Source: Alphaproteobacteria bacterium
Lineage (GTDB): Bacteria > Pseudomonadota > Alphaproteobacteria > CAAHEQ01 > UBA3637
Reading direction: 5' to 3'
DNA length: 64,000 nucleotides
Assembly: GCA_045605805.1 (NCBI GenBank)
Contig: JAZUQR010000026.1
Location: forward strand, 6,101 to 70,100
Positions within the stretch are counted from its first letter, which is position 1. Every line of letters starts with the position of its first letter. Made by a program: the position numbers and the translations under genes. Positions 33,399 to 54,012 of the stretch are shown here, piece after piece. Under the pieces are notes generated by a model. That model ran no database searches. It saw only the letters and a list, made by a program, of their open reading frames with translations, and was not told the origin of the DNA.

Positions 33399-33570
33399 GG
33401 GTGACCAGTCAGATTTCAAAAGTGACCAGCCCCCGATTTTTGAAAATAGTATAAGTATTTGATATTACTGTATTTTTATGCGGCCAGTGACGAGACCGAT
33501 TTTTTCTGTTTCGCTAAAAAAATGGCGCGGCTTGTGTCCCCGAATATGAATTATCACCAGGAAGGATCCG
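33399..33570. repeat. Conserved ~170-bp non-coding element, copy A (GTGACCAG iterons plus conserved core 'ttcgcta.aaa.atggcgcggcttg.gtccccg.atatgaa...ccaggaagga')
   Basis: Aligns at ~75% identity with 51152-51318, same orientation. Confidence 0.6.
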
Positions 33571-33633
33571 GTGGCATATTTCCCCCCTAAAAAGGATTGG
33601 CTCTCTATACCCAAACGGCAGTTATGGCCATGT

Positions 33634-33966
33634 TCATATCTGTTGGATTTCAATCCCCAGCACGCCATATTTTTGTTGAGAATCAGGTGTATAAAATTCT
33701 TGTAAAACCGTAATCAATTCTTCTTTGGATGTAAAACCTGCCTGTTCCGGTGTGATAATTTGGCATAGTTTATCAAAACTTTCGGCCCTGTGCAGGTTTA
33801 TGACCCGAGCAACAAAGGAATCATTTGTATCAGATAAATTAGAAAACACAATCTTATCCCCTATTTTTATTTGTTGCCTTTTTTCGTCAAACAACCTAAG
33901 CTCAACAACTTTTTTACCTGATTTTAACAGATTGTAATACTTTGTTTGGACTTTCATATGATGCAT
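33634..33966 (-). CDS. ASCH-domain protein (YqfB-like)
   Basis: 'LKSGKKVVELRL...IKIGDKIVF' and C-terminal 'YGVLGIEIQ' parallel E. coli YqfB architecture. Confidence 0.55.
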   Translation of the reverse strand: MHHMKVQTKYYNLLKSGKKVVELRLFDEKRQQIKIGDKIVFSNLSDTNDSFVARVINLHRAESFDKLCQIITPEQAGFTSKEELITVLQEFYTPDSQQKYGVLGIEIQQI

Positions 33967-34563: not shown

Positions 34564-34591
34564 ATATTTTTCATCGCCTCATTTCAGGCAC

Positions 34592-34633
34592 GAAAAAAGC
34601 CCGTTTCAAACGGGCTGAATCTTAAATTGGTGG
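34592..34633. repeat. 42-bp direct repeat identical to 53901-53942 (tRNA-Ala 3' end plus terminator hairpin); putative att site, left island boundary
   Basis: Exact 42/42 match. Sequences diverge immediately outside. Confidence 0.7.
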
Positions 34634-34813
34634 TGTTACTTGATTTTTGAACGAAAAGGATGCATTTGTCCTTTGCTTTTGGGGCATTTTGCAAATGACT
34701 TGTATGCAAAAATAGTGTTGCTTATCGTCAAAAATGCACCTTTTCAAAATATAAGTTGATAAATCTGTAAATAAGAGCATGTATGGTGATCTCCTCAATT
34801 GAAAGGAGAATAC

Positions 34814-34909
34814 ATGGAAAAACAACTTAAACTCTTGGCTCAAATCATCCTGCCAACGCTCTTAACCGTATTGAAAGATAATAAAAAAAATAAAAAACAC
34901 CGATCTTAA
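34814..34909 (+). CDS. Possible 31-aa hydrophobic/Lys-tailed small peptide
   Basis: Strong RBS gaaaggagaatacATG. 'MEKQLKLLAQIILPTLLTVLKDNKKNKKHRS'. Confidence 0.2.
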   Translation: MEKQLKLLAQIILPTLLTVLKDNKKNKKHRS

Positions 34910-34926
34910 GCCAAAAAAGGATACCT

Positions 34927-35397
34927 CTACTTTTCGGTTTTTTTATAGAGAATAAAGTGAGGTAATTTATCCATATCTATATAATTAAACATTTTATAAT
35001 TAGCTCGTCTGGCTTCAGGAGATAAGGTGTACTTTCTTAAATGATCCTTAGGGACGAAAGGATAGAACCAAATCTCATGATGTGAAACACCTTTTTCTTT
35101 CCATTTAAAATTGAGAATTAACAACGGAGGTAAAATCCCAGCTTTCAAAACTTTTTCCATAATGTCCCAACCGGCTCCACGAACAACGGATGAAGGTTTA
35201 TGGTTAGCACTTTTAATTTGGGCGCGAAAATTACAGCCAGTACATTGAATATCACACAGCGGATAATTGTTTGGTAAAAGCATTAACTTTTTACCGCCAT
35301 TAGGACAACAGACCAAATCTACAACTTCTTGTTCCCCAAGCTTTCCATTTTCCTGGTTAATTGACATTTCTACCTCCATATCTGTTGTTATATACAT
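34927..35397 (-). CDS. Hypothetical protein with Cys-cluster (CC-x11-C-x3-C-x2-C, zinc-ribbon-like)
   Basis: ORF with 'CCPNGGKKLMLLPNNYPLCDIQCTGC'. Confidence 0.4.
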   Translation of the reverse strand: MYITTDMEVEMSINQENGKLGEQEVVDLVCCPNGGKKLMLLPNNYPLCDIQCTGCNFRAQIKSANHKPSSVVRGAGWDIMEKVLKAGILPPLLILNFKWKEKGVSHHEIWFYPFVPKDHLRKYTLSPEARRANYKMFNYIDMDKLPHFILYKKTEK

Positions 35398-35508
35398 AAT
35401 AACAGCTGAAAGTTTTAGAATTTACAATATTATTCAAAAATTTTTCTATTTCACTGGACTTCTTCGTTTTTCCAAGCATTCATTGTAATGTAACGAAAGG
35501 AGTTTATT

Positions 35509-35763
35509 ATGAATACAGTTAAAGTTTATTTGGTGCGAAAACCTTTGGATTTTGAAGAAGTAAAAAACTTATGCAAAAAGTATGCGCATAAGGCCGAAGA
35601 GATCTTAATTGAAGAAACTGTCAACCTACCACCAACTTGGTATGAGGAGTTTTGCCAACGCCCATTGGATAACTACATTTTCTTATCCGGTAAAGGCGGT
35701 TATGATGATTTAGGCCACCGCAAAGTAGTTGCTATAAAATGCCTAGGCAAGCCAACGCTCTAG
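35509..35763 (+). CDS. Small protein family A (paralog of 50738-51046); ends at an in-frame TAG
   Basis: RBS aaaggag. 'YIFLSGKGGY' shared with paralog. Confidence 0.55.
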   Translation: MNTVKVYLVRKPLDFEEVKNLCKKYAHKAEEILIEETVNLPPTWYEEFCQRPLDNYIFLSGKGGYDDLGHRKVVAIKCLGKPTL

Positions 35764-35809
35764 GTTGATCCTTCCGGCTCAAGCTATTGCCGATATATGG
35801 GAGTAGAAA

Positions 35810-36046
35810 ATGAAAAATTATAATGACATTCCTCCAAATTACAAAATCAGCATGCCGATGGTTTATAACCACGCAATTAGAGTACTTGATAGGCTGGATA
35901 GACGACTGAGCAGACTTAACACCCCAGCGCTACCGATTAAATACAAATACGAAATCAATCGTCTAGAACATAAACTGGAACAAATGGTCGCTAAATACAA
36001 AGCCATTGAAAAGGAGTTGGAATATGTCCGAACCAAAATATCCTGA
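35810..36046 (+). CDS. Hypothetical small coiled-coil protein
   Basis: RBS gggagtag. Absent from the paralogous cassette. Confidence 0.3.
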   Translation: MKNYNDIPPNYKISMPMVYNHAIRVLDRLDRRLSRLNTPALPIKYKYEINRLEHKLEQMVAKYKAIEKELEYVRTKIS

Positions 36047-36227
36047 GATAACTGTGCACCTGGCAGGTGAAAATGGGAATGCTTTTTATATTTTAGGCAA
36101 ATGTCGTTCGGCGATGAGGCGTGCTAACATCTCCAAAGAAGAACAAGATGAATTTTACCGCCAAGCCACCGCCAGCGACTATAATCACTTATTCATCACC
36201 TGTATGGAATGGTTTAATGTAGAATAG
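36024..36227 (+). CDS. Small protein family B (paralog of 50530-50727)
   Basis: RBS aaggag. 'KYPEITVHLAGENGNAFYILG' conserved with paralog 'KYPDIIVQLTGKDGNAFNILG'. Confidence 0.55.
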   Translation: MSEPKYPEITVHLAGENGNAFYILGKCRSAMRRANISKEEQDEFYRQATASDYNHLFITCMEWFNVE

Positions 36228-36292
36228 GTCTATTTTTCTTGATTTTTTATGAATTAAAGGATATGCTGATTAAAAATCAGGAGGAAATAGCT

Positions 36293-37216
36293 ATGCAACC
36301 CAAATTTTTACATTCTTTTGTGACGCGTTCTCATAAAGGCGTTTATGGCATTATTCGGAAAAATAATCAGATTTTACTCATCCGTAAAGCACGTGGTCCC
36401 TATACAGGGCTTTATGATTTGCCCGGTGGAAGTCCGGAAGCTGATGAAACACCTGAACAAACAGTGGCTCGTGAAATCAAAGAAGAAACAAATTGTGATT
36501 TAATTTCTTGCACCAACCAACGTGAAAAAACAATTTTCTTTTCCAAATTTACCAAAGAAAGTGGAGAAGAAGGCTGTATGCAACACACGGGGATTTTGTT
36601 TGATGTTAAGGTGGCGGGTGAACCCACAACCCAAGGGGATGGATTAGATTCCAATGGAGCTGTTTGGGTAGATATCAATACTTTATCCAGTCAAAATGCA
36701 ACACCTTTTGTTTTAATGGGCTGTGGTAAGGAAGTTATCAATTTAGCCAATGAAGAGGATTACCCTGTGGATGTCGCTGTGCGTGGGGAACCTATCCCCG
36801 AAGGAAGGTGTCCCATGATTGCAGGTCTCTTTTTGTTCAACTCTAAAGGCAATATTATTTTGCAGAAAGTGGCTTTATCAAAGAAAACAGATCCGGGGAA
36901 ATGGAGTTATTCTGCTGCTGGGCATGTGGATGCTGGTGAAACTTATGAACAGGCTGCCTTACGTGAATTAAGCGAAGAAATGGGAATTAAGGCCTCCGGC
37001 ATAACCTTTGTTGGAAAAGGCCATATATTAAAGAACGGCAATCCTCGTGCTTTTCATCATGTATTCAAGGTGATTTCTGATGATAAGATTACTTTTGAAC
37101 CGACCGAGGTAGCCGAAGTTAAAGAATGGACTATTCCGGAATTAAAAGAGCAAATAGGGACTCACCCCGAACAATTCAAAGATATTTTTGCCCAAATTTT
37201 TATGGAGGTCTTTTAA
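36293..37216 (+). CDS. Tandem (double) Nudix hydrolase
   Basis: Two Nudix boxes: 'GGSPEADETPEQTVAREIKEETNCD' and 'GHVDAGETYEQAALRELSEEMGI'. Confidence 0.75.
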   Translation: MQPKFLHSFVTRSHKGVYGIIRKNNQILLIRKARGPYTGLYDLPGGSPEADETPEQTVAREIKEETNCDLISCTNQREKTIFFSKFTKESGEEGCMQHTGILFDVKVAGEPTTQGDGLDSNGAVWVDINTLSSQNATPFVLMGCGKEVINLANEEDYPVDVAVRGEPIPEGRCPMIAGLFLFNSKGNIILQKVALSKKTDPGKWSYSAAGHVDAGETYEQAALRELSEEMGIKASGITFVGKGHILKNGNPRAFHHVFKVISDDKITFEPTEVAEVKEWTIPELKEQIGTHPEQFKDIFAQIFMEVF

Positions 37217-37229
37217 TCAAGGAGGAAAC

Positions 37230-37664
37230 ATGTCAGGACCAGAAAGATTTAAAGTACCCGTTGGGATTTTTATAATGCTACGTCAAGACGATAAAGTTTT
37301 GTTGCAGCTGAGGCAAAATTGCTCGTTCAGTGGATATTGGGGATTCGTTGGTGGCCATTTGGATGGAAATGAACAGATCATCTCTGCCGCTATTCGTGAA
37401 GCAAAAGAGGAAGTCGGGGTGGATATTTTACCGGACGATTTGACCTTAAAGACCATTTGCCACAGTAATAAAGGCGAAGAGTACCTGCAATTTTATTTTG
37501 AATGTCGCAAGTGGTTAGGTGAAATTGAAAATAAGGAGCCCCACAAATGCGAACGCTTGGAATGGCATGAATGGAATAAGCTCCCTGAGCATACTTGTCC
37601 CTATTTGAAGGAAGCAGTAAGCAAAATCAATTCAGGAATTTCTTTTTACGAGGATACTTTTTAA
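37230..37664 (+). CDS. Nudix hydrolase
   Basis: 'GGHLDGNEQIISAAIREAKEEVGVD'. RBS aaggagg. Confidence 0.75.
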   Translation: MSGPERFKVPVGIFIMLRQDDKVLLQLRQNCSFSGYWGFVGGHLDGNEQIISAAIREAKEEVGVDILPDDLTLKTICHSNKGEEYLQFYFECRKWLGEIENKEPHKCERLEWHEWNKLPEHTCPYLKEAVSKINSGISFYEDTF

Positions 37665-38254
37665 TGCTGAATAAACTTATTTACTTAACGACAAATCCTC
37701 ATAAAGTTCAAGAAGCCAATGAATTTCTTATTAAGAAATATGGGTTTAATTTGGAAATCATGAAACCTTCTTTTGAAGTGCTGGAGATTCAAGCAAAAAC
37801 TTGTGGCGAGGTTGCGAAATTTAGCGCTAAGTATGGGGCTGAAAAACTGGGAGTTCCGGTTTTGAAATCCGATTCAGGACTTTATATCGAAGCATTGGGC
37901 GGTTTGCCAGGACCTTATAATGCCTATTTTGACAAGCAAATAGGAACAGAAAAGTTTTTGGATATGATGAAAGATATCCCAAATAGGCATGCTAAATTGG
38001 AACATTGTTTTGCTTATTGTGAGCCAGGACAAGAACCCATCTTGTTTACAGGGGGAAGTACGGGGCGTATTTCTTATGAAGCCAAAGGAGAGAAAGGGCG
38101 TTGGCATGACAAGTTTTATATCCCTGATGGGGAAGAAAAAACACTCAGCGAATTACGCGCCATCAACCATGAATATGAGGCACAATTTTGGGGACATGCC
38201 TTGGATGACTTTGCAAAATGGTACAAAGAAAAATTAGAAAAGGATAAAATTTAG
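37664..38254 (+). CDS. Ham1/Maf-superfamily non-canonical purine NTP pyrophosphatase (ITPase-like)
   Basis: 'LTTNPHKVQEAN' and 'SDSGLYIEALGGLPGPYNAYF' motifs. TAATG overlap with upstream gene. Confidence 0.7.
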   Translation: MLNKLIYLTTNPHKVQEANEFLIKKYGFNLEIMKPSFEVLEIQAKTCGEVAKFSAKYGAEKLGVPVLKSDSGLYIEALGGLPGPYNAYFDKQIGTEKFLDMMKDIPNRHAKLEHCFAYCEPGQEPILFTGGSTGRISYEAKGEKGRWHDKFYIPDGEEKTLSELRAINHEYEAQFWGHALDDFAKWYKEKLEKDKI

Positions 38255-38268
38255 TGAAAGGATAACAA

Positions 38269-38850
38269 ATGCAATTACCAGAACAAATTGAATCAGAACG
38301 GATTATTTTAAAGCACCCTATGAAACCGACCTTTAAATTGGCTGAGGAGCTTTACGCGATTGTGGATAAATCCAGAAATACTTTAAGCGAATGGCTCCCT
38401 TGGGTGGATAAAACGAACTCTGTAGAGGATGAATTTACTGGATATCTGGTGAGTCTGAATCAAAAACATTGGGATGAAGGAAATGGTTTCGGTTATCTTA
38501 TTTATCAAAAGGAAACAAATCAGATTTTAGGCGTTGTGGATTTATGCCATGTTGAGGAAAAACATCAATCCGCCGAAATCGGGTATTGGCTCTCTGATGA
38601 CGCAACAGGTCATGGGTATATGCAAGAGGCTGTGCGTGCGTTGGAAAGCGAGGCCTTTCAAAATGGACTTAACCGGATTATCATCAGAAATGATACTTTG
38701 AATATACGCTCTGCCCATGTGGCTGAACGCTGTGGTTATATTTTGGAAGGTGTCATGCGTCAAGATTGTTGGGATGATTATCATCAGCATTTACGTAATA
38801 CCAATATCTGGAGCAAACTCAAATCCGAATGGGAGAAAGAACAAAAATGA
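38269..38850 (+). CDS. GNAT acetyltransferase (RimJ/RimL-like)
   Basis: 'IGYWLSDDATGHGYMQEAVRAL' motif. Confidence 0.7.
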   Translation: MQLPEQIESERIILKHPMKPTFKLAEELYAIVDKSRNTLSEWLPWVDKTNSVEDEFTGYLVSLNQKHWDEGNGFGYLIYQKETNQILGVVDLCHVEEKHQSAEIGYWLSDDATGHGYMQEAVRALESEAFQNGLNRIIIRNDTLNIRSAHVAERCGYILEGVMRQDCWDDYHQHLRNTNIWSKLKSEWEKEQK

Positions 38851-40058
38851 TTTCACTCAAATCAGCCCCTAGATGGTTATCTATTGCTTATGCCTTAACA
38901 TCGGCATTGTTTTGCCTGCCGACATTAATGCTTTTTTATGGGTTTAAAGGTGTTGGTATGGGGGATTTTTTCTTGATTCAAGGGATATCAAATCTCACTG
39001 TATTTTTTATGGAAGTTCCAACCGGCTATATCGGTGATTTGTTTTCCAGAAAACACACTTTAATTATCGGGGTATTGTTTTGGATCTTGGGGCATGTTAT
39101 TTGGATTTTGGGTTCAGGATTTTTCATTATTTTACTGGGGGAATTGTTATTTGCATTAGCGATTGCTTTCATTTCCGGCACGGCGGAAGCATATTTATAC
39201 GATTTATTGAAAAAACGACATAAAGAAAGTTTATTCCATAAAAAATATGCTAAAATGAAAATGTTGGATGGAATTGCTTTGATGGTGGCTACGCTGACCG
39301 GTGCTTTTATCTATCAATTTTTGGGGCCAACCATTCCGTTATACTTAACAATTTTCTGTTTAATGTTAAGTGTTGTTATTTTATGGCAATTACCGGATGT
39401 TCCCGAATCCAGACGTATTGTTGACAAAGATAAAAGCAAATGGCAGGATATTTTGGATATTTCCAAATATGCCGTTAAACATCCTGAAATAAAATGGCTG
39501 ATGCTTTTACCGGCGGTGTATGGGACATTAACGCTTATTTTGATGTGGGGATTACAATCCGTTATGGTATTTCATCAATTACCTGTATTTGTTTTCAGTT
39601 TGATTTTAGGGATAAACGCATTGATGAGAACTTTTTGGTCGGGCGTTTCCGGTCGGATATTGGAAAAAATAAACCTTTCCGGAACCATAAAATTGCAAAG
39701 TTTAATTATTATCATTGCCTCTTTGGGGGCATGTATATCGGCCTATGTTCCGTTATGGGGTGTTTATATATGTTTGGGCTTGATGATTATCGGATCAGCC
39801 TCCAGTTCTTTATCCAGTATCACAACATCTGTTTTGGTCAATCATAGGATTCAATCCAATGAACGGGCGACAATTTTATCGGTTAAATCAATGCTGGCAA
39901 AGGCTTTTCATGGGGTGGGACTTATCTGCTTGAAACCCTTGTTTGACGGAATAGGTGTCGGACCAACTTTTATGGTATCTGCCCTGCTTTTAATCCCTAT
40001 TCTGATTTGTGCAAGACACCTGTATAAGATGAAGTTAAGGATAATGAAAGGGGACTGA
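38847..40058 (+). CDS. MFS transporter
   Basis: 12 TM helices. ATGA overlap with upstream stop. Confidence 0.7.
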   Translation: MISLKSAPRWLSIAYALTSALFCLPTLMLFYGFKGVGMGDFFLIQGISNLTVFFMEVPTGYIGDLFSRKHTLIIGVLFWILGHVIWILGSGFFIILLGELLFALAIAFISGTAEAYLYDLLKKRHKESLFHKKYAKMKMLDGIALMVATLTGAFIYQFLGPTIPLYLTIFCLMLSVVILWQLPDVPESRRIVDKDKSKWQDILDISKYAVKHPEIKWLMLLPAVYGTLTLILMWGLQSVMVFHQLPVFVFSLILGINALMRTFWSGVSGRILEKINLSGTIKLQSLIIIIASLGACISAYVPLWGVYICLGLMIIGSASSSLSSITTSVLVNHRIQSNERATILSVKSMLAKAFHGVGLICLKPLFDGIGVGPTFMVSALLLIPILICARHLYKMKLRIMKGD

Positions 40059-40059
40059 T

Positions 40060-40953
40060 ATGCTGATACTGAACATCAATGGGCCAATGAATTCTGGGAA
40101 ATCTACGGTTTCTAAGATTTTGGTGAATATGCTCCCTAACGCCACTTTTATTGAAGTGGATGAATTAATGAGTGATGAGGAACAAGAAAAACTGGGGCTA
40201 TCCCTGCAACAAGGGTGGCGGGAACGTCATAAACGATTAAATCAGAAATTAAGGGCTCTTAAAAAATCGCATGAGTATGAAACTGTGATTTTTGCTTATC
40301 CGATTGCTGACAATACTTATCAGGATTGGAAAATGCTGGAGGATAACCACACAAAGTTTTTGAACATTACCCTTGCGCCCAGTTTGGAAGAATGTTTGAA
40401 AAATCGTGGCACACGAGAACTCACCGATTGGGAAAGAAATCGCATTCGTGAAATGTATGAAGAGGGATATCAAAACCGCCCATACGCCGACTTTATCATC
40501 AATAATGACCATCAAACACCCAAAGAAACTGCTGAGATTATTAAAGGATTTATTGAACATGCTCTCTCCCCAAAACAACAATGGTTACATTTGGTGGAAA
40601 AACGTTGGCCCGCCCTTTTGAACGGAGAAAAAACTTCCACTTTCCGTTTCAATGAAGGTTTCATCCATAAGGGCTTCTTGGTTTATAAAGACTGCCCAAA
40701 CGAACAGTTGGCCGAGGTTGTTTATGTGACACATGTGTATTATGTGCCTTTGCGCCAAGCCAATGAAATAGACGGATATGATGAGCATACACCGGATATG
40801 GAAACAGCCTTAAAACAAATGCGTGTTCATTATCCAGATATTACTTTGGATACGCCCATTTTATTTGCTCAGCACTTAGGAGTTCCTGAAACCAAACAGA
40901 AATATCCAGAAGAAGTTAAAGAAATATTGGAGAAAATGAATGTCAAAAACTAA
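40060..40953 (+). CDS. P-loop small-molecule kinase (CPT/zeta/uridine-kinase-like) fused to a C-terminal ASCH-like domain
   Basis: Walker A 'INGPMNSGKSTV'. C-terminal 'LLNGEKTSTFRFNEGFIHKG' ASCH-like. Confidence 0.5.
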   Translation: MLILNINGPMNSGKSTVSKILVNMLPNATFIEVDELMSDEEQEKLGLSLQQGWRERHKRLNQKLRALKKSHEYETVIFAYPIADNTYQDWKMLEDNHTKFLNITLAPSLEECLKNRGTRELTDWERNRIREMYEEGYQNRPYADFIINNDHQTPKETAEIIKGFIEHALSPKQQWLHLVEKRWPALLNGEKTSTFRFNEGFIHKGFLVYKDCPNEQLAEVVYVTHVYYVPLRQANEIDGYDEHTPDMETALKQMRVHYPDITLDTPILFAQHLGVPETKQKYPEEVKEILEKMNVKN

Positions 40954-41347
40954 ATTATCAGTATGTGGTGTCATTGTACATCAGAGCAAATTTCTAATAG
41001 TCAAACGTTCTGAAACAGATGACTTTTTGCCAAATTGTTGGGAATTCCCTGGTGGTGGTGTAGAAGATGGTGAAACAATATCCGAAGCCTTGAAACGAGA
41101 AATAAAAGAAGAAATAGGTTGGGATATATCAAATGAATATCCAAAACTCATCGGTATTTCTGAAGAGTTTATGAATGAAGAAAAAACAGAAAGATATTTA
41201 CAATTAAATTATAAGATTGTTATGGACACAGAACCCAACATGACACTCAGTTCCGAACATGTCGCTTTTGATTGGGCGGACACGACCGATTCCAGATTGG
41301 ACGATTTTCTAAAAGAGATTATTAGGCAACTGAATACAACAATCTAA
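40940..41347 (+). CDS. Nudix hydrolase
   Basis: 'GGGVEDGETISEALKREIKEEIGWD'. Confidence 0.7.
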   Translation: MSKTKLSVCGVIVHQSKFLIVKRSETDDFLPNCWEFPGGGVEDGETISEALKREIKEEIGWDISNEYPKLIGISEEFMNEEKTERYLQLNYKIVMDTEPNMTLSSEHVAFDWADTTDSRLDDFLKEIIRQLNTTI

Positions 41348-41729
41348 ACTCTTCGCATTCTAACATTGTGTCAGGGGTAATGTCTTTCCAATATGCCTTG
41401 TGAATTTTGCGCCAAGTAGCAAGGGTTTTATCTCCTTCGCCTTCTTTACGAGCAAAATCGGCATCTACATTATTAAAAGGAACAACAGAGACTTTGGTAT
41501 CCTCAATAATTGCTTGAGCATTACCAGTAGAATCTAGGATAATACTGATATCTCCTGCTTGATTGGTATTGCCACCTCGATAAATGCAACTAGTGGCCGT
41601 TTTCTCGCCACTTATGACCAATTGCAACAACTCATCTGGTTTGTCGCCAAAAGTAAAGATGTCATAAGATTTGCCTTTATATGATGGGAACTTTTCAACA
41701 AACTCTTTCCATAATTGTTCGGGAGTCAT
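41322..41729 (-). CDS. ASCH-domain protein
   Basis: 'FTFGDKPDELLQLVISGEKTATS' canonical ASCH N-terminal motif. Confidence 0.65.
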   Translation of the reverse strand: MTPEQLWKEFVEKFPSYKGKSYDIFTFGDKPDELLQLVISGEKTATSCIYRGGNTNQAGDISIILDSTGNAQAIIEDTKVSVVPFNNVDADFARKEGEGDKTLATWRKIHKAYWKDITPDTMLECEEFRLLYSVA

Positions 41730-41983
41730 TTGTTTCGCGCTCCTTTTACCCCAAAGACAGCTTTGAAGTTATACCTGTTCTTGTGAATAAGTTCAACCCC
41801 ATGGGCTTTGGATATAACCAGAACATATTTGCCTATCCACAGACGAAAGTAATAACTTTTAATGGCTAATTTAATATTTTCTTTTGTGCGATATTCAGTA
41901 CCATCAGCCCGCTCCACTTCAACACTTCGGCCGAAGCCAAAGCGATTGTTATCCAAATCAAATCCGTATTCAATGTAAATCAT
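41726..41983 (-). CDS. Hypothetical small protein in RM operon
   Basis: ATGA-coupled to downstream ASCH gene and overlaps upstream phosphatase gene. Confidence 0.4.
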   Translation of the reverse strand: MIYIEYGFDLDNNRFGFGRSVEVERADGTEYRTKENIKLAIKSYYFRLWIGKYVLVISKAHGVELIHKNRYNFKAVFGVKGARNK

Positions 41984-42440
41984 TTTTCTCCAAATAATCT
42001 AAAAACGCTTGGCAACCTTCATAAATATCCCAATAGGTTTCATCAAAGTTGCCAGTGTACCAAGGGTCTTTAACTGGTCGAGGATTTTGGGTGAAGTCCA
42101 ACAGACGATGCACTTTATGGTCTTTATCCTCGCCAACGATATCCAAAATATCCCGCACATTGTTATCGTCCATCGCCAAAATATAGTCAAATTTATCATA
42201 GTCGGACTTGCGAATTTGACGCGAGTAGTGTTGGGTGAAAGGGACTTTCATCTGCCGAAGCATATCCGCCGCTCGGTAATCCAGCGCCTCATGCACCATT
42301 TCGTTATACCCCTCTGTCGCGGCAGAGACAATTTCAAACTTGTCCGCTACACCTTTCTCAGCGACCATTTGCTTCATCACAAATTCCGCCATTGGCGACC
42401 GACAAATATTTCCAAGACATACGAATAGAACTTTAATCAT
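41970..42440 (-). CDS. Low-molecular-weight protein-tyrosine phosphatase / ArsC-like
   Basis: 'VLFVCLGNICRSPMAE' CX5R P-loop and 'DPWY' motif. TAATG overlap with hsdR stop. Confidence 0.8.
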   Translation of the reverse strand: MIKVLFVCLGNICRSPMAEFVMKQMVAEKGVADKFEIVSAATEGYNEMVHEALDYRAADMLRQMKVPFTQHYSRQIRKSDYDKFDYILAMDDNNVRDILDIVGEDKDHKVHRLLDFTQNPRPVKDPWYTGNFDETYWDIYEGCQAFLDYLEKNDLH

Positions 42441-45400
42441 TAAGCAACCCTCACATTGTCTGTCCAAAGTTCACATTGAGTCATAACCGTTTCAACGGCA
42501 TCCTCTACACCTTCTGGGGGATACTTATGCTTTTTCAATAACTTTTTAATAAGCATACGCATCTTTGCACGAGCATTCTCACGCCTTTGCCAGTCAATTG
42601 TTTTATTTTTACGCAGTGTTTCTGTTAGTTCTTTTGTAATGGCAACTAATTCGTCATTTTCATAAAAATCCTTAACTGCTTGAGGCTTTGTTAATGCATC
42701 ATAAAAGGCAACTTCTTCTGGTGTTAATCCTAAATCTGCCCCTTCCTTTTGGGCCTCCGAAATTTGTTTTGCCAGGCTGAGTAACTCTTCTATTACCTGC
42801 TCGTTGGTAAGCATACCATTTAGGTAGCGGTTCATAATTGCCTGAATTATTTCACTAAACTTTTCAGAACGCACAACGTTTGTTTTACGGTAAATAGAAA
42901 TTTGTTCTGCAATTAATTTTTTCAAAAGTTCAAGGGCTAAATTCTTTTGTTTCATTTTTGAAATTTCTTCCAAAAACTTCGGATCAAACAAAGAAAATTC
43001 TTTCTTTACATCAGAAAATAAATTAATAACGCCATCGCTTTTTATACTTTGTTTCAGCAACTCATTAATACGTTCATTCATTTCCTTCAAAGAAATCTTT
43101 TTGCCTTCTCCTGCATTAGTTAAGCGTAAGGTCAAAACACGAACGGCTTCCATAAAAGCGGCTTCTATGCGTTTTTCTTCCTTAACAATAGAAGAACACA
43201 AAGATAAGGATTGATGTAGCATCAAGGCATGCTTCAGGAATTGTTCTTTTTTCTTATCTGTTCCAATAATAAAGTTTACTGCCCCACTAATAAGCTCAGC
43301 ACGCTTTAAATTACTACCCGTCATAAATTGTTGATAATCAAATCCATGCAATAAATCACGACAAACACTTAATTTTTCTTCAAATTCTTTAAGTGCTGTT
43401 TCAGCGATATTCATATTTCCATAGTTCTTTTTATCACGAACTGTGTAATCGTTCATCGCTTGTTTCAGCGCATTTGCAATTCCGACATAATCTACAACAA
43501 GTCCACCTTCTTTATCCTCAAATACACGATTAACGCGAGCTATTGCCTGCATTAAATTATGTCCCATCATTGGTTTATAAACATACATCGTTGCCAAAGA
43601 AGGTACATCAAATCCGGTCAACCACATATCCACCACAATGGCAATTTTTAGAGGATCTTTGTTATCCTTAAATTTACGGGCCAACGCTTCTTTATGAGAT
43701 TTATTTCCAATGATTTGACGCCAATCTTCTGGGTCATCATTACTAGAAGTCATCACAACCCCCACTTTTTCTTTCCAATTGGGACGTAATTTTAAGATTT
43801 CTTCATAAATTTTCAAAGCAATAGGACGTGAATAAGCAACAATCATCGCCTTTCCAGTAAGCAAGTTTTCCCGATAATTTTCATAGTGGTCTATAATATC
43901 GTTTACCAAGGAATGAATAGTGTTATCATTCCCCAGAATTGCTTCCATTTGCCCAAGTTTCTTTTTACTTGCTTCAATGACTTCAGGATCTGCATTTTGG
44001 GCCATTAAATCATATTCATCATCAATTTTCTTGAGTGTTTCTTTATCCAGATTCAACTTAACCACTCGACTTTCATAGTAAACGGGGCGAGTTGCTCCAT
44101 CTTCCACAGCCTGTGTCATATCATAGATATCAATATAATTTCCAAACACTTCTTGCGTATTTCTGTCTTTTTTGGAAATAGGTGTCCCCGTAAACCCGAT
44201 AAATGTTGCATTTGGAAGACTATTGCGGATAACACGAGCAGTCCCTGTTTTAATTTTCCCGTCTTTGGTTATTTTTTCCGCCAAACCATATTGCCCCCGA
44301 TGAGCTTCATCTGCCATCACAATAATATTCCGGCGAGTGGACAATGGCTCTTCGGATTCTTCAAACTTCTGCATCGTTGTAAAGAAAATCCCATTGGCCT
44401 TGATACCATTTAATAACTTTTTCAAATGTTCCCGACTAGTTGCTTGAACGGGTTCTTGTCTTAAAAAGTCTTTACATTTGGCAAATTGTCCATAGAGTTG
44501 ATCGTCCAAATCATTGCGGTCTGTTAGTACCACAATTGTCGGACTGTTTAAAGCACTTTGTAGCAGGTGGGCATAAAACACCATAGATAAAGATTTACCA
44601 GAACCTTGTGTATGCCAAAACACACCACCTTTACCATCTGTTTCTGTTGCTTTTTGAGTTGAAGTAATGGCTTTTTTCACCGCGAAGTATTGGTGATATC
44701 CGGCCAAGATCTTTTTGCTTCCTTTATTTTCATTGGAAAAGCAAATAAAGTTCTTCAAAATATCCAAGAGTCTCTCTTTTGGAAAGATGCCTTTAAAAAA
44801 AGTATCAAACTGTGCGTGTTGGGTATTTTCATATTTTCCATCCACAGTTTTCCATTCCATAAAGCGTGTTTCATCAGAAGTAATCGTTCCCGCCTTGGAT
44901 GTCAATAAATCGCTTGTGACGCAAATAGCGTTATAGATAAACATAGAGGGGATTTCATGTTTATAGTTTTGGATTTGGCGATATGCCTCGGAGGCATCTG
45001 TTTCTTCACGGGAAGGAGATTTCAACTCCATCAAAACCAAAGGCAATCCGTTCACAAATAACAAAATATCCGGACGTTTTTCGCTGTTTTCAATAAAGGT
45101 CCATTGGTTAGCTACAATAAAAGAGTTTTTATCAGGTCTATTATAATCAATCAAATAAACAATGGTATCTTTGGGTTCTCCCTTTTCTGTATAGCGAACC
45201 GTAATACCACTTTGCAAATACTCCATAAACACAGCATTCTTTTGTGTTAGTTCTGCGTTCTCAAAGTTCTTTAATTTTGTTAAGGCCTCTTTAATCGCCA
45301 CTTCGGGAAGTTTAGGATTCAAGCGGCACAAAGCATCAATCAACTCATCTTCGTATAAGGGAGAATGAAAATCCCGACTTTCTAAATCAGGCCCATAGAC

Positions 45401-45487
45401 ATACCGATACCCCATCCCCTCAAACAACTCTATTACAGAGTTTTCATAAGCTTCTTCATTTACAGGATTGATAAAAGTATCGGTCAT
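42440..45487 (-). CDS. hsdR: Type I restriction enzyme R subunit
   Basis: 'TQGSGKSLSM' motif I, 'MADEAHRGQ' DEAH box, 1015 aa, HsdR N-terminal nuclease region. Confidence 0.9.
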   Translation of the reverse strand: MTDTFINPVNEEAYENSVIELFEGMGYRYVYGPDLESRDFHSPLYEDELIDALCRLNPKLPEVAIKEALTKLKNFENAELTQKNAVFMEYLQSGITVRYTEKGEPKDTIVYLIDYNRPDKNSFIVANQWTFIENSEKRPDILLFVNGLPLVLMELKSPSREETDASEAYRQIQNYKHEIPSMFIYNAICVTSDLLTSKAGTITSDETRFMEWKTVDGKYENTQHAQFDTFFKGIFPKERLLDILKNFICFSNENKGSKKILAGYHQYFAVKKAITSTQKATETDGKGGVFWHTQGSGKSLSMVFYAHLLQSALNSPTIVVLTDRNDLDDQLYGQFAKCKDFLRQEPVQATSREHLKKLLNGIKANGIFFTTMQKFEESEEPLSTRRNIIVMADEAHRGQYGLAEKITKDGKIKTGTARVIRNSLPNATFIGFTGTPISKKDRNTQEVFGNYIDIYDMTQAVEDGATRPVYYESRVVKLNLDKETLKKIDDEYDLMAQNADPEVIEASKKKLGQMEAILGNDNTIHSLVNDIIDHYENYRENLLTGKAMIVAYSRPIALKIYEEILKLRPNWKEKVGVVMTSSNDDPEDWRQIIGNKSHKEALARKFKDNKDPLKIAIVVDMWLTGFDVPSLATMYVYKPMMGHNLMQAIARVNRVFEDKEGGLVVDYVGIANALKQAMNDYTVRDKKNYGNMNIAETALKEFEEKLSVCRDLLHGFDYQQFMTGSNLKRAELISGAVNFIIGTDKKKEQFLKHALMLHQSLSLCSSIVKEEKRIEAAFMEAVRVLTLRLTNAGEGKKISLKEMNERINELLKQSIKSDGVINLFSDVKKEFSLFDPKFLEEISKMKQKNLALELLKKLIAEQISIYRKTNVVRSEKFSEIIQAIMNRYLNGMLTNEQVIEELLSLAKQISEAQKEGADLGLTPEEVAFYDALTKPQAVKDFYENDELVAITKELTETLRKNKTIDWQRRENARAKMRMLIKKLLKKHKYPPEGVEDAVETVMTQCELWTDNVRVA

Positions 45488-46338
45488 TTTTTCTCCTTTA
45501 ATCCTTTAAGAAATTCAGCCATTTTGTTTTTCCGTTCTTTATTATCTTTAGCCAAAACGCAGAATAAAAGCAATTGATAAATTTCATCATACCACTTTTC
45601 TAATTCTTCATTGGTCAGATTTGTTACTAGATTATTTTTCTTTTTACCTGCCTTGTTATTATGACGAATATCTAAATTATTAAGCATATTCTTTGCAGTT
45701 TTGAAATAATCAGTGAATCCGTCAATAGGATTATCTAAAATAGGTTCATATTCCTGAGCAATTCGACGTAAAATATCTTTTTTTTCTGCTAATTGTCCCT
45801 TTAATGATGCATGATGGTATTTTAAAATTGCCATTGCTGTATCTGTAGAGGAAATTTCTGCTACAGCTGTTGCAGCAGGATTTTTAGGAATTAAAATAAC
45901 TTTTTCTTCTTCAGTAAATATCTTCTTTTCATGGTGAATATGTTCTAAAAGCAAATCTATATTACTCAAAAGCATAGGATATTCATTATAATACTGAAAA
46001 TTAATATTTTGACGACCAACTCCTCGCTTCTGTATCAATAAATTTATAAGATTAAGATAATACTCTAAAATTGTTACCATTTCATCAGTGGTATCCACAT
46101 GTTCTGAAATGAATATTTTGTGTCTCATTTCATCACAGTTTAAGCAACTTCCTCTTTGCTTCCAATTTACAAAAGCATAACTATCTACCATTTGTTCAAT
46201 AGTTCCCTGTGTTTGTTGAAAATTTAAAGGATTTGTATACACCAACATTGCGGTATTAAATAATTTAACAATTTTTCGAAATTCTTTTTGAAAATCATAC
46301 TTGCTTGCTAAAATTTCAAAGATATTTTTACGAGTCAT
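45484..46338 (-). CDS. Uncharacterised protein embedded between hsdS and hsdR (284 aa)
   Basis: ATGA overlaps on both sides. No motif I can assign. Confidence 0.55.
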   Translation of the reverse strand: MTRKNIFEILASKYDFQKEFRKIVKLFNTAMLVYTNPLNFQQTQGTIEQMVDSYAFVNWKQRGSCLNCDEMRHKIFISEHVDTTDEMVTILEYYLNLINLLIQKRGVGRQNINFQYYNEYPMLLSNIDLLLEHIHHEKKIFTEEEKVILIPKNPAATAVAEISSTDTAMAILKYHHASLKGQLAEKKDILRRIAQEYEPILDNPIDGFTDYFKTAKNMLNNLDIRHNNKAGKKKNNLVTNLTNEELEKWYDEIYQLLLFCVLAKDNKERKNKMAEFLKGLKEKK

Positions 46339-46808
46339 GGGGCATCCTTTTTATTTTCCAGTGGCTTATTAAAACAATCGATATTCTTTTTTAGTTCTAC
46401 TGTTAAATCGTTGGTTACAGCATATATTTTATAATCTTTTATATTGGCAATATCTTTATTAGTATTATCATCTATTTTGGGAATAAAAACAGTATTATAG
46501 GGAGATATCACAAGGGGACTCCCTAACGCGGTCCAAAAACCACTTTGCGTATTATTATCTTCTACATATATACGGTAAATAACTTCCGTTTTATTTTTAT
46601 GATTAACAATGCAAAAGTTTGTTATATTTGCCTTTTGAGTCTTGTGATCATACATTGCTGTCGGCAAAACAATAGATAAATCGTGCCCCGTTCTTTCTTG
46701 TTTATCATCTTTTGCTATCTTTGCCATGGTCTTGGTAAGGAAAAATATGGCAATTGTCAAAATTAACATTGATGTTGATAAAACTATGTTCCAATCTATA
46801 TAAACCAT
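46335..46808 (-). CDS. Uncharacterised membrane-anchored protein embedded in RM operon (~157 aa)
   Basis: N-terminal TM 'VLSTSMLILTIAIFFL'. ATG at 46808 preferred over TTG at 46814. Confidence 0.5.
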   Translation of the reverse strand: MVYIDWNIVLSTSMLILTIAIFFLTKTMAKIAKDDKQERTGHDLSIVLPTAMYDHKTQKANITNFCIVNHKNKTEVIYRIYVEDNNTQSGFWTALGSPLVISPYNTVFIPKIDDNTNKDIANIKDYKIYAVTNDLTVELKKNIDCFNKPLENKKDAP

Positions 46809-46810
46809 AT

Positions 46811-48022
46811 TCAAACCTCCACATTATCGACATTGATTTTGCCGGACATGAGTTTGGGTAATAAAGTGTCTCGAAGTGCAGACAACTGGATATTTTCTCT
46901 TTGGTTTGCTTTAATTTGTGCAAACATTGGAGAAATCACAGAATGGAAATCTTTCAATTCAGATTCTTCTGGCATAACAAAAGGCATTGATTTAATAATT
47001 TTTGAATTAACGGCAGTTGCAATGGATGACGTGCTCCCCATTGTTTGAAAATTAAAGTTTTTCAAATAATAATACAAATATTCGTTTATTTCTTTTTTAT
47101 CTGTTCCAAAATGAGCAATGGCTTCGTTTGTTGCCATTTCTCCATCTGTAATTGCAATTCTTCCAACAGTCAGTTTAAAGCTCAATAGAACAGTATTATC
47201 TGGTACAATTTTAACATTAAATTTGGAAATTGACTCTGGAACTAAATATTCAGAACTATCAGAAATATACAGCCCACAATTTCCCATATCGGATATAGAT
47301 ATCCATTTAATATCATTAGTGTTTTTTGAAAACCATTCAGGCTCTTTTCGGGGAGGAGTTTTCCCGATTGTAATATTAAAAAATTCTTCAGCTTTTATCG
47401 TTTTTCTGTTTGGATTTATTTTATCTATGAACCAAGATTTAAAGAGGGCTTGGGCTTGGAGTTCGAGGTTTTGATTGATTTTGTTGTTCAGCTCTATCTT
47501 ATCATCCAGAGCCCCCAACACCCCCGCAATCTTCCTCTGCACCTCCACTGGCGGTATATTTACAGGGATGGAATACAAATGTCCAACCTTTATGCTAGGT
47601 TGTACAGAACTTATATTCAATGCTTGTATATAACTTTGTATATTGGGTTGAGATAAACAATAATACATGAATGTAGAGTCAATGTCCTCTTTATACTGCA
47701 TGGCAATGATGTTTTGCGCTATACACCCCTTATCTTGCGGCATTAAAGCAACTTTTCCAATGTTTCCAACAGTTGTTATTAAAACATCTTTTGGGTTGGG
47801 ATGTCCACTTCGAAACCAATTCTGATACGTTTCAATATTAACAAATTTTGATGCAGAAGCCAAATCTGGGTATCTATCTCCAGCTTTTAATAAGTTGCTT
47901 TCAAGTAGAGGAATGATACCTTCCGTATCCAAGGGTGCATTCTTTCCCCGGTTATCAATTGTATTTTTAACCAAATCCCCTAATTTAATCTCTCGCCAAC
48001 CTGACATTATATTATTTGCCAT
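46811..48022 (-). CDS. hsdS: Type I restriction-modification specificity subunit
   Basis: Two target-recognition-domain halves with conserved central/C-terminal helices. Start MANNIMSGW with RBS aggga. Confidence 0.8.
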   Translation of the reverse strand: MANNIMSGWREIKLGDLVKNTIDNRGKNAPLDTEGIIPLLESNLLKAGDRYPDLASASKFVNIETYQNWFRSGHPNPKDVLITTVGNIGKVALMPQDKGCIAQNIIAMQYKEDIDSTFMYYCLSQPNIQSYIQALNISSVQPSIKVGHLYSIPVNIPPVEVQRKIAGVLGALDDKIELNNKINQNLELQAQALFKSWFIDKINPNRKTIKAEEFFNITIGKTPPRKEPEWFSKNTNDIKWISISDMGNCGLYISDSSEYLVPESISKFNVKIVPDNTVLLSFKLTVGRIAITDGEMATNEAIAHFGTDKKEINEYLYYYLKNFNFQTMGSTSSIATAVNSKIIKSMPFVMPEESELKDFHSVISPMFAQIKANQRENIQLSALRDTLLPKLMSGKINVDNVEV

Positions 48023-48032
48023 CAAATATTCC

Positions 48033-50425: not shown

Positions 50426-50529
50426 TTTGGACCTCTTTTCGTTTAGAATCATAATATCGTAAATTCTAGCCGATTTTTTCTGAAAAGGCAATCAGAAATA
50501 TAAGGTCTGTTGTATTTAATTATGGTGCT

Positions 50530-50727: not shown

Positions 50728-50737
50728 GACGATCTCC

Positions 50738-51046: not shown

Positions 51047-51151
51047 GATAATCTCCTTTCGCATCACAATGAACGCTCTTTTTCGAAGAATTATCCAGTT
51101 ATTTCTGTACTAAATCGCAAGAAATATGCATTATTTTGAGGGGGTGACCAG

Positions 51152-51318
51152 CCAGAAGTGACCAGTGACCAGCCAGGAAAAATTGGGTCCCCTTATAACC
51201 CTTGTGTTTATTGGGGTTTGAGATATACCCGACCAGCCAGAATTTTTCGGTTTCGCTAGAAATATGGCGCGGCTTGCGTCCCCGCATATGAAATCTCGCC
51301 AGGAAGGACCTCTGGCCA
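51152..51318. repeat. Conserved ~170-bp non-coding element, copy B (three GTGACCAG iterons plus conserved core)
   Basis: Aligns with 33399-33570. Lies in the 5' leader of the RM operon and 3' of the nitroreductase gene. Confidence 0.6.
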
Positions 51319-51363
51319 GATACCTGATCACCCGAGTGGCTAGTAATCCAAGCAACCAAGAAA

Positions 51364-51879: not shown

Positions 51880-51958
51880 TGTTTATCCTTTCTGTTTGTG
51901 ATTATTATATAGCACTGTTTTTTCAAAAAAAGAAAGTAAATTAGTAAGCTCAAAACTT

Positions 51959-52723
51959 TTAGCCTTCTTCATTGGTTTTGGCATATTCTTCCCCGTACAT
52001 TTCCCATTGGTCAACCGAACGCTTCCAATCTTTAATTGGGTTGCCATACTTATCACGCCACTTTTGGCGGGAATAATAAGCGTGGAATTGGTAAGGGTTG
52101 ATTCTATGATAGTTCATTGTTTGACAATACTCTTCCACTTGTTCTATGGACGGGCTGTTATCACTTGATCCCAACAGTTGTCCGATTGGAACCGGACCTT
52201 TAGAAATTGAGCCTTGCCTTGGCACACTCCAATTCATTGCCAAGCCTGAGGGAGTTTCTTTTTCATTATATACATTCTGGGCATTCTTTCCTTTCTTATT
52301 TATAGCCGCAGGTAGTTCGCCGGTCGTCCGCAGGTAGTTCGCGCCTGAGTCGCATTGGGACAATTCATCACCGCCTAACACATTGAAATCATTATATTTT
52401 AACATCTTTATAAGTAGTCCGTTTGCTAAGCGTTTTGTATCAACTTCCCCGGTTTTTTTGAGTTTTGCTATAACCCGCTTGATTTATTGCGGGGATTTTT
52501 TTAAGGCCTCTGAAATCACTGCATAACTGGTCAGCAATTCGCCTTTATGGATAACATATTCATAAAGTTCTTTATCTTGGAAATTTGCGCGCAGTAAGAG
52601 ATAAAGATATACTTGGCACACATTCTCATCCGGAAGCCAGCGCCAGTTTAAATAACGTCTGTCTAATTTGACAAAGCCAAGAGGAAAATGCGGATCATCC
52701 GTTTTTTGTTTGTTTTGAGACAT
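51959..52723 (-). pseudogene. Phage/ICE-type replisome-organiser (DnaD-like) gene split by frameshift in an A7 run (~52486)
   Basis: N-fragment 'FVKLDRRYLNWRWLPDENVCQVYLYLLLRAN', C-fragment '...KYGNPIKDWKRSVDQWEMY'. The alternative frame joins them. Confidence 0.5.
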
Positions 52724-52740: not shown

Positions 52741-53714
52741 ATGAGAGGGAAAATGGTTAATCTTTGACGGGTGGAAAACCGAACAGTTTTCTTTGTTCGG
52801 GCCAACTGGCCGGGATAGAGGCCCTCAATAATTCTCGGGCGGTCATAGTTTTGGGTTGAGCTCCCCGTAAAATGGCATCAATAATATCCGGTGCCAAAAA
52901 GGTAAGCCGAATTTGCGCCCCGATATAGGCCGGATCCTGATGATATACTTCGGCCAGTTCATGCAGGTTTAAGTTCTTGGCTTCCTAGGTTTCACGATAA
53001 GTAAAACCGTTGGCCAAAATCTTAATGAGATAGCGGTCTTCTTTCTTGGATGGCTTTTCACCTGAGGTCAAATACAGCATATCCGACACCGTTTCGGGCA
53101 AATGAATCTCTTTGCTCCCACGATGTGTAATCAGGTTAAAGGGAACCGTTGATTCCATCAGTTCCGGTTTTAATTCATTGGGTTTCAAACTGGCTTTCAG
53201 GCGTTTGTCCATCAGGTGAAGGGCCAAAGGTTTCCAGACCACAATAATTTTATCGGCAAAAATCGTTACCCCGTGAACCAGCAGGCTGACTATTTTTTCC
53301 TTTTGCGTGCCGGTCAGTTGTTGAAAGACAGAGTCAGTTTCACGCATGGCATAAAAGACTTCGCTTTCTTTTAAGTCCGGTTGCACTTGGCAGGCTTCCT
53401 GAGCCAGCGCCTGTAAAACATACGGGGATTTAATCAGTGGATTGAGCAAGTCCATCACCAAATTATCCAACAAGTGCATGGGGATGGCATTCAGCCGACA
53501 TGAATGAGGTCCGTATTTTTTGTGTATTTGATTTGAATAGGTTTTGGGCGGATTCAAATGTTTCTTTATCAATAATCGCTTGATGTTGGCCCGGGAAAGA
53601 AGTCCCTTTATGCGTAATCTCACCGATATAAACACGATTATTAAGCATACTCCTTAAAAAGGTCCAGCCGGGAACTTTTCCCCGAAAAGTGCAATTTTCC
53701 CGTAAAAGGCGCAA
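52741..53714 (-). pseudogene. Large serine recombinase remnant (internal TAG, frameshift, catalytic N-domain missing)
   Basis: 'NNRVYIGEITHKGTSFPGQHQAIIDKETFESAQ' recombinase-domain motif. C-terminal 'LAPDIIDAILRGAQPKTMTARELL' after in-frame TAG. Confidence 0.55.
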
Positions 53715-53900
53715 AGTTATCGCTTTTTATGGATTACCTAGCAAAGAAAGTTTTGGTTGGTTCATCTGCTTAAATAGCACTTTTGCTTTCTTTTCCCAAA
53801 AAACACAGATGAATTGTGGTAAATGGGCATTTTCACATTGAGCCTAAAATGCATCACAAGAGCTTTTGTAACGGGCTTATCATTCCCCTGTTTCAAATAT

Positions 53901-53942
53901 GAAAAAAGCCCGTTTCAAACGGGCTGAATCTTAAATTGGTGG
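53901..53942. repeat. 42-bp direct repeat copy 2 (tRNA-Ala last 6 nt plus downstream terminator); right island boundary
   Basis: Identical to 34592-34633. Hairpin agcccgttt/aaacgggct followed by T-run on minus strand acts as tRNA-Ala terminator. Confidence 0.7.
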
Positions 53943-54012
53943 AGATAAGGGGAATCGAACCCCTGACCTACGCATTGCGAACGCGTCGCTCTACCAACTG
54001 AGCTATATCCCC
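53937..54012 (-). tRNA. tRNA-Ala (anticodon CGC) with G3:U70 identity pair, CCA-encoded
   Basis: Reverse complement folds into cloverleaf: acceptor GGGGATA/TATCTCC, anticodon loop TTCGCAA, T-loop TTCGATT. Confidence 0.9.

Follow-up and report, generated by a model that had tools for sequence, protein, structure and literature searches.

A conserved non-coding element of gut alphaproteobacterial islands as a probable lambda-type cos packaging site

Why does a stretch of alphaproteobacterial DNA carry the same non-coding element of about 170 bp twice, and in the same orientation? The stretch is 64,000 nucleotides of contig JAZUQR010000026.1 (assembly GCA_045605805.1, Alphaproteobacteria bacterium), the whole of which we call the window and whose coordinates are used throughout. 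A first-pass annotation had described two related copies, and both are indeed present, copy A at 33401-33569 and copy B at 51144-51310, each read here on the minus strand. The roles it had offered were a small RNA (sRNA) or 3' untranslated region (3'-UTR) element, an iteron-type operator, or a recombination site. What we found favours a role absent from that list, a phage-type packaging site in which the core of the element would be cosN and its iterons cosB, and we consider the element quite probably a DNA-packaging site of the lambda cohesive-end (cos) type.

Over their whole length the two copies are 69-75% identical, rising to 85% in a 78-nt core (33489-33566 against 51231-51308). A 29-nt pattern from this core matched the window at copies A and B only, with 0 matches expected, and a scan with a core profile returned the same two sites (E=5.6e-25 for copy B, 1.3e-20 for copy A). 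The iteron GTGACCAG occurs six times in the window against 0.75 expected, and five of these occurrences lie inside the two copies. The annotation had counted two or three direct repeats at one end of each copy; their place stands, while the counts become two clean repeats plus a degenerate proximal pair in copy A and three distal repeats plus one proximal (CGACCAGCC) in copy B. The start of copy B also moves, from 51152 to the first GTGACCAG at 51144, with an end near 51310. As described earlier, each copy lies just 3' of a minus-strand gene, an ASCH gene (33634-33966) upstream of copy A and a nitroreductase gene (51364-51879) upstream of copy B. Copy B had further been taken as the direct leader of a restriction-modification (R-M) operon, a view that does not hold because two small genes of 109 aa (50738-51067) and 94 aa (50530-50814) intervene before hsdM. 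The open reading frames that overlap the copies had been called spurious, and we agree: they lack coding conservation, and in the frames compared by eye every difference between copies A and B changes an amino acid.

The earlier proposal of a conserved DNA element with further copies was borne out by an exact scan of one genome per species, which gave 24 true core loci, and by a metagenome scan, which gave 41. The genome loci come nearly all from metagenome-assembled genomes of uncultured gut or rumen Alphaproteobacteria, and altogether about 64 copies beyond the window pair were found in gut and rumen alphaproteobacterial contigs. Both scan patterns required the GGCGCGG form of the core, which fixes much of it, so core variation is under-sampled. 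The edges of the element are sharp, and its left and right flanks both change from locus to locus. All types share a core of the form ...CTAG...GGCGCGGCTTGCGNCCCCGCATAYGA...GGAAGGACCC and differ in their repeats and spacer: type A is that of copy A (85-89% identical to intact A-type copies), type B that of copy B (94-97% identical to the B-type copies of other genomes), type C carries GTGACCAC in place of GTGACCAG, and types D and E are further types.

Within this variation the repeats keep their places. In 64 of 66 copies a GACCA[GC] motif precedes the core by 40-49 nt (about -40), and distal iterons, two to four of them, cluster at -100 to -140 throughout. The GTGACCAG repeats, with their fixed distances from the core, behave like protein-recognition repeats, as the annotation had supposed. 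The only freely variable core positions are the three central nucleotides of the overhang that we predict below. The spacer between proximal and distal repeats holds a consensus site for integration host factor (IHF), WATCAANNNNTTR, in 23 of 31 A-, C- and D-type copies including copy A, compared with 0.4% of shuffled spacers.

Being non-coding, conserved and 3' of a minus-strand gene in both window copies, the element could be read as a structured RNA, whether an sRNA or an element in the 3'-UTR of the gene upstream, and a GGCG/CGCC helix that tolerates C-to-T changes would suit such a reading. Rfam, however, gave no match at the gathering threshold and nothing meaningful at E<=10, and 24 diverse cores gave only a weak consensus fold (-8.07 kcal/mol, with a covariation term of -0.37 and two compensated pairs). 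Three scans found no conserved terminator and no conserved promoter, the upstream gene varies among loci, and direct repeats at fixed spacing suit binding of a protein to DNA better than an RNA fold. We regard a structured RNA as very improbable. An operator role likewise found no support.

A pointer to packaging came from type D islands and from phages. In the islands, as we call the element-bearing loci of bacterial contigs, those of type D carry a small-terminase gene (terS; phrog_57, E=1e-22) that starts about 25 nt past the distal iteron, and a sigma-like HTH gene (phrog_1740) that ends about 30 nt before the core. The TerS proteins of certain IMG/VR contigs share 62-77% identity with that of type D islands (74-76% for contig L125, and in one comparison 70-77% across phage contigs; loci and contigs are named by L numbers), and after terS these phages have genes for a large terminase of the GpA family, TerL (E=4e-98, 2e-85), and a lambda-family portal protein (E=3e-112). 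When phage contigs were fetched again, with a phage TerS as the query and flanks of 10 kb, 22 of the phage loci each had the element once, in constant orientation relative to TerS; it lies 2.7-5.4 kb upstream of TerS, with a ParB-nuclease/methylase gene directly downstream of the element. These phage copies, which were reached only through TerS homology and then a profile search, differ at one to three core positions and divide into the types known from the islands. GACCAC iterons accompany the group of phages with a TerS 62% identical to the phage TerS used as query, and GACCAG iterons the groups at 65-100%. The repeats lie on the TerS/ParB side of the core at fixed positions in 64 of 66 copies, and the repeat variant tracks the TerS clade and not the adjacent replication protein.

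In direct searches of IMG/VR the exact core pattern in its GGCGCGG form had no match among 2.9 million viral contigs, the iteron-pair pattern hit 46 loci, which by our estimate is about chance for its 16 specified bases, and the core profile gave none that was significant there. The GGCGCGG form is found in 64 island copies, whereas phage copies have GCCGCGG or other variants, for example GCCGCGGCTTG...; GGCGCGG may be an island-specific variant of the cosN flank, though our search patterns selected for it.

Relatives of these phages have mapped genome ends. Phages of the RcC cluster (a Rhodobacter capsulatus phage cluster) have defined termini bearing 11-base 5' overhangs (PMC8601537). Between the gut phages and RcOceanus, TerL identity is 47%, and the type D island TerS is 34% identical to that of the RcC cluster. 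The ends of RcC virion DNA fall at ...TATGCG/GGGGGCGGAAG/CGCG..., a site that aligns with the GC-rich core of our element, the flanks of the GC-rich block being partly two-fold symmetric (TATGCG...CGCGCCATA). The RcDormio record ends in ...CTACGCTATGCG / ...GGTTCTTCCGGACCCCTACGCTATGCG, and the RcDormio and RcKemmy records begin with GGGGGCGGAAGCGCG...CTAGCG...TTTTTTTT (GGGGGCGGAAGCGCGTTAAGTCCCTAGCGTGACACGTTTTTTTTGGGTTTCCAC...), three copies of GTTTCCAC and then a ParB-like gene. On its minus strand the element has the same order of blocks, namely GGGTCCTTCC, about 12 nt, TATGCGGGGNNNCAAGCCGCG, CTAGCG, a run of A or T, repeats and a ParB gene. The near-invariant upstream block of island and phage copies aligns with GGTTCTTCC, the right end of the RcC genomes. 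In the RcOceanus record, which carries the joined end sequence, a profile of island and phage copies found its best match in the whole 37.6-kb genome, both strands considered, exactly across the junction (37420-37492).

We suggest that the element would work as follows. The conserved upstream block GGGTCCTTCC would occupy the position of cosQ, a role that we infer from position alone. A GpA-family TerL would nick cosN 11 nt apart within ...TATGCG/GGGACGCAAGC/CGCGCC..., the predicted cut falling inside GCG/GGGNNNCAAGC/CGC. One proximal and two to three distal CTGGTCAC repeats would make up cosB as putative sites for a Nu1-like small terminase, and the spacer between the two repeat sets probably bends, the A, C and D types having the IHF consensus there. 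Packaging is predicted to run toward lower window coordinates because the order cosQ-cosN-cosB runs on the minus strand. In an island, the terminase of a helper phage would cut and package the DNA, and, on the more tentative reading of a satellite lineage given below, the cos module would set the range of helpers, the GACCAG and GACCAC types matching distinct TerS clades. The anatomy and spread of the copies, their occurrence in phages, the terminase homology, the alignment to published ends and the lack of linkage to the replication protein are observed, whereas cleavage, TerS binding, IHF binding, dependence on a helper and present activity are steps that we infer from these comparisons.

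The surroundings of the element raise the question of whether it serves the island's own genes. Its right side, in window orientation, always has minus-strand genes, in the order replication protein, large serine recombinase, DUF2924 and often HTH_17; an accessory gene sometimes precedes the replication gene, as the nitroreductase does beside copy B. The replication protein is either lambda-O/DnaD-like (PHROG 2514, 186, 345) or a DUF6291 organiser with DUF6362, and in related islands a tRNA-Ala or tRNA-Met comes after this block. The left side holds variable cargo, often a type I R-M system. Origins of Staphylococcus aureus pathogenicity islands (SaPIs) lie 3' of rep, and in most islands here the element is directly 3' of the replication gene, with two iteron sets flanking a partly AT-rich spacer; the neighbouring lambda-O/DnaD-like or DUF6291 protein, which matches known initiators, might bind GTGACCAG and melt that spacer, making the element an iteron-type replication origin. 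This reading, suggested by the adjacent Rep, was dropped because B-type elements 98% identical to each other lie beside initiators only 29% identical. GACCAG iterons are moreover shared among unrelated initiator families, the phages have 1-2 kb of other genes between replication module and element, and an origin would leave unexplained why the GC-rich core is conserved in every type and aligns with physical genome ends. We judge an origin decidedly unlikely. The element is equally conserved beside recombinases only 44% identical; because its neighbours diverge in this way (initiators at 29%, unrelated families, recombinases at 44%), the protein that reads it is not encoded beside it. A transfer origin (oriT) was weighed and not taken further; neither a relaxase nor a mobilisation gene came to light.

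The fetched flanks of the islands, 559 kb of island DNA in all, have no TerL or portal gene, and 14 loci have TerS without TerL. The islands have a recombinase with DUF2924 at a tRNA and a replication module of their own, the recombinase being fragmented in the window. Because TerL and portal are missing from the 559 kb, the islands look like cos-type phage satellites, or like a long-lived lineage of deletion derivatives, that would depend on related lambda-like phages for terminase and capsids. The temperate lambda-like gut phages share the left arm of the islands, comprising DUF2924, a serine recombinase, a sigma-like gene, DUF6291/DUF6362, cos, and the 109-aa and phrog_1933 genes, the islands having cargo such as type I R-M instead of head and tail genes. 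That they form an undescribed lineage of cos-type satellites of uncultured gut and rumen Alphaproteobacteria, derived from the left arm of temperate lambda-like phages with a serine recombinase and carrying defence cargo, is a tentative proposal to which we give somewhat less than an even chance.

Several observations weigh against a cos site or against its use by satellites. The RcOceanus junction match is modest (E=0.03, profile positions 5-78), and an island-only profile gave nothing at E<=1 against the Rhodobacter phage ends. In pairwise comparison with Rhodobacter cos, phage copies scored z of about 4.5, copy B about 1.7 and copy A -0.8, neither window copy alone being significant. None of the fetched contigs terminates at the predicted nick, and the element of the gut phages and islands is linked to physical ends by homology to the Rhodobacter phages. 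The 2.7-5.4 kb between element and TerS in the phages differs from the adjacency seen in lambda, the link between iteron type and TerS clade may reflect shared ancestry only, and the IHF consensus is absent from all B-, E- and F-type copies, including copy B. Instead of forming a lineage of satellites, the islands could be prophages that decayed repeatedly, and copy B may be out of use because the recombinase and replication genes of the window are broken.

A further reading could coexist with cos. The element might be a late-operon control region, at which a phage activator or sigma-like protein drives the ParB-TerS-TerL operon, and which islands would keep in order to turn on their own genes upon helper infection. 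It heads the ParB...TerS-TerL block in phages, the sigma-like phrog_1740 gene lies about 30 nt before it in type D islands (in phages the homologue is a few kb upstream, beyond the replication module), and in B-type islands the 109-aa gene is downstream on the same strand. Three scans of the element, however, showed no conserved sigma-70-type promoter, genes past the iterons converge on it in many islands, and its best-conserved block is the GC-rich core that maps to the genome terminus. We consider this reading unlikely, and prefer the cos site.

The window itself appears to hold two such islands (Table 1). A 71-nt repeat made of the last tRNA-Ala bases and a terminator hairpin occurs at 53877-53947 and 34568-34638 (83% identical) and brackets a 19.3-kb island, island B (about 34640-53937), that holds copy B. 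These repeats resemble the junctions that two related islands would leave on integrating in tandem at tRNA-Ala. Copy A lies just past the distal repeat with ASCH and GNAT genes, an order of element, ASCH and GNAT also seen in L018, and would be the decayed cos of an older, tandem-integrated island remnant; it is probably defunct because its proximal repeats and core are altered. Fragments of the initiator and recombinase of island B are 95-100% identical to intact homologues elsewhere; to judge from sequence, the island is decaying while its cos copy is still near consensus. Cargo in the window comprises R-M, NUDIX, Ham1, MFS and phosphatase genes. A bolder, tentative corollary is that, with two predicted cos copies in direct orientation 17.7 kb apart, the segment between them could be packaged from cos to cos without excision, despite the dead recombinase.

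The same junctions bear on the recombination site that had been proposed earlier. An att or res site of the island serine recombinase, or a hotspot of module exchange, would account for flanks that vary on both sides, for the tandem and hybrid copies and deletions between iterons described below, and for a serine recombinase that is always close by. We rejected an att site because the junction repeats lie at the tRNA: islands end at tRNA-Ala or tRNA-Met, in the window marked by the repeat of the tRNA 3' end, and the element is internal to islands and phages alike. The same element also occurs with recombinases only 44% identical, and the rearrangements fit ordinary homologous recombination between repeats. 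We find a recombination site scarcely credible.

Table 1. Element copies, their parts and the associated island features in the window.
Feature	Position	Strand	Remarks
Copy B, complete cos-like element	51144..51310	-	order cosQ-like, cosN, cosB; profile E=5.6e-25
Copy B cosQ-like block GGAAGGACC (minus strand GGTCCTTCC)	51302..51310	-	about 20 nt upstream of predicted nick
Copy B putative cosN core ATGGCGCGGCTTGCGTCCCCGCATATGAA	51264..51292	-	aligns with RcKemmy/RcDormio physical ends; predicted 11-nt cohesive end ~51272-51283
Copy B proximal iteron CGACCAGCCAGAA	51230..51242	-	sits where lambda has R3
Copy B spacer between proximal and distal iterons	51173..51229	.	type-specific; without IHF consensus
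Copy B distal iterons, 3 x GTGACCAG at 51144, 51158, 51165	51144..51172	-	where lambda has R2 and R1
Copy A, decayed A-type cos-like element	33401..33569	-	profile E=1.3e-20; mismatches in proximal iterons and core
Copy A putative cosN core ATGGCGCGGCTTGTGTCCCCGAATATGAA	33522..33550	-	predicted cohesive-end region ~33530-33541; 2 positions off A-type consensus
Copy A degenerate proximal iterons (GGCCAG, GTGACGAG)	33480..33499	-	intact A-type copies have GTGACCAGTGACCAGCCGGA at the same place
Copy A IHF-consensus site (TATCAAATACTTA, minus strand)	33452..33464	-	between proximal and distal iterons
Copy A distal iterons, 2 x GTGACCAG at 33401, 33422	33401..33429	-	clean repeats
Replication initiator fragments (148 aa, 79 aa), lambda-O/DnaD-like	51959..52723	-	95-100% identical to intact 254-aa L010 protein
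Large serine recombinase fragments	52757..53714	-	intact homologue domains: Resolvase, Recombinase, Zn_ribbon_recom
tRNA-Ala (53937-54012) and repeat D2b, tRNA-proximal junction of island B	53877..54012	-	related islands abut tRNA-Ala/tRNA-Met
Repeat D2a, displaced tRNA-Ala 3' end and terminator	34568..34638	-	boundary of island B and older remnant

We also observed rearranged and accessory forms of the element. L073 and L086 are short forms with one or two repeats fused directly to the core, which look like deletions by recombination between distal and proximal repeats. In seven loci (L004, L008, L014, L021, L078, L084 and L096) a GACCAG-type copy is directly followed by a GACCAC-type copy; such tandem cos sites of differing repeat type could allow the use of two helper lineages. 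Within the B-type spacer, 26 nt (AACCCTTGTGTTTATTGGGGTTTGAG, 51198-51223) match the spacer of phage contig L147 exactly when reverse-complemented, the segment between the repeats having been inverted. On the cosQ side, the element is directly adjoined by a non-coding module, conserved and about 65 nt long (GTTGGCACCTTTACCCCCTAAAAAGGACTGGCC...CAGTTATGGTCATGTT), at 33570-33633 in the window and in L005, L007, L013, L017, L019, L024, L025, L074, L079, L091 and L103. In L002, L003, L006, L011 and L100 the neighbour on the same side, about 125 nt from the core on the plus strand, is a gene for a 236-aa HNH endonuclease; an HNH gene next to cos is known from other cos phages. Near the ends of the 19.3-kb island, the pair of 109-aa-family and phrog_1933-family genes occurs twice in inverted orientation (35509-36227 on the plus strand, 50530-51067 on the minus strand), and related phages have this pair in the interval from cos to TerS. 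At 7445-7552 there is a tandem duplication of 54 nt (83% identical) that appears unrelated to the element.

With the cos reading, an anonymous repeat becomes a testable annotation, namely a packaging signal with predicted nick positions, and two tandem island remnants at tRNA-Ala are mapped along with it. The reading suggests a family of islands that phages could mobilise, with R-M and other cargo, in uncultured gut Alphaproteobacteria, in which, to our knowledge, phage satellites have not been described before. That satellites copy the cos of their helper is a mechanism already known. Terminase specificity could be studied with the natural series of cosB variants that match TerS clades, and in metagenomes the element could serve as a simple sequence marker by which to find such islands and the phages likely to help them.

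The closest functional model is lambda cos, which shares with our element a conserved block, a GC-rich and partly symmetric nick region, a proximal repeat, a bendable spacer, distal repeats and nearby terminase genes. The related gut phages have a GpA-family terminase and a lambda-family portal, the Rhodobacter relatives a gpW-like gene, and in type D islands the start codon of terS abuts the repeats, as that of Nu1 does. Nevertheless, the element has no detectable sequence similarity to lambda cos. The lambda overhang is 12 nt and the one predicted here 11 nt, the repeats here are direct repeats of 8-12 nt, the B, E and F types have no IHF consensus, and in gut phages 2.7-5.4 kb with ParB/methylase and small genes separate cos from terS.

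The RcC phages are closer in sequence and gene order, with an HTH gene, a non-coding region, a ParB-like gene, TerS and TerL in the same succession and with orthologous terminases (TerL 47%, TerS 34%). Their cos is colinear with our element through GGTyCTTCC, TATGCGGGG..AAGC.GCG, CTAGCG, a T-run and direct repeats, and the experimental end falls inside the GC-rich block. In contrast, their repeats are three GTTTCCAC in one cluster, whereas GTGACCAG forms two clusters here, and they are complete phages with GC-rich genomes and low overall nucleotide similarity to our element (profile E=0.03).

SaPIbov5 and P4 are satellites with a helper-type cos, and the islands share with such cos-type satellites an integrated state, the lack of morphogenesis genes, an integrase and replication module, a putative helper-type cos and defence cargo. 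The phage-inducible chromosomal island (PICI) EcCICFT073 of E. coli also carries a helper-type cos, and both it and SaPIbov4 have two cos sites (PMC6092414), an arrangement resembled here by the tandem copies of L004, L008, L014 and L021. Unlike these satellites, the islands use a large serine recombinase with DUF2924 and not a tyrosine integrase, have no recognised AlpA- or Stl-type regulators, replicate by lambda-O/DnaD-like or DUF6291 proteins and not pri-rep, and reside in uncultured gut Alphaproteobacteria. Whereas EcCICFT073 has a different cosB, that of the islands matches the phage type. PICIs are defined by a tyrosine integrase, an AlpA-type regulator and a pri-rep module with an adjacent ori (PMC6092414 for Gram-negatives), features that SatelliteFinder also uses; the islands have a serine recombinase, replication that is not of the pri-rep kind and an HTH_17 protein without an AlpA assignment. 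Because of the serine recombinase and the different replication modules, we suggest that they should not be filed as PICIs, though they would work like a cos-PICI.

A last comparison is with SaPIs that encode their own TerS. The SaPI TerS redirects headful (pac) packaging, whereas the system here is cos-type, and the types of the two window copies have no terS. Like those SaPIs, however, type D islands keep terS without terL beside the packaging site.

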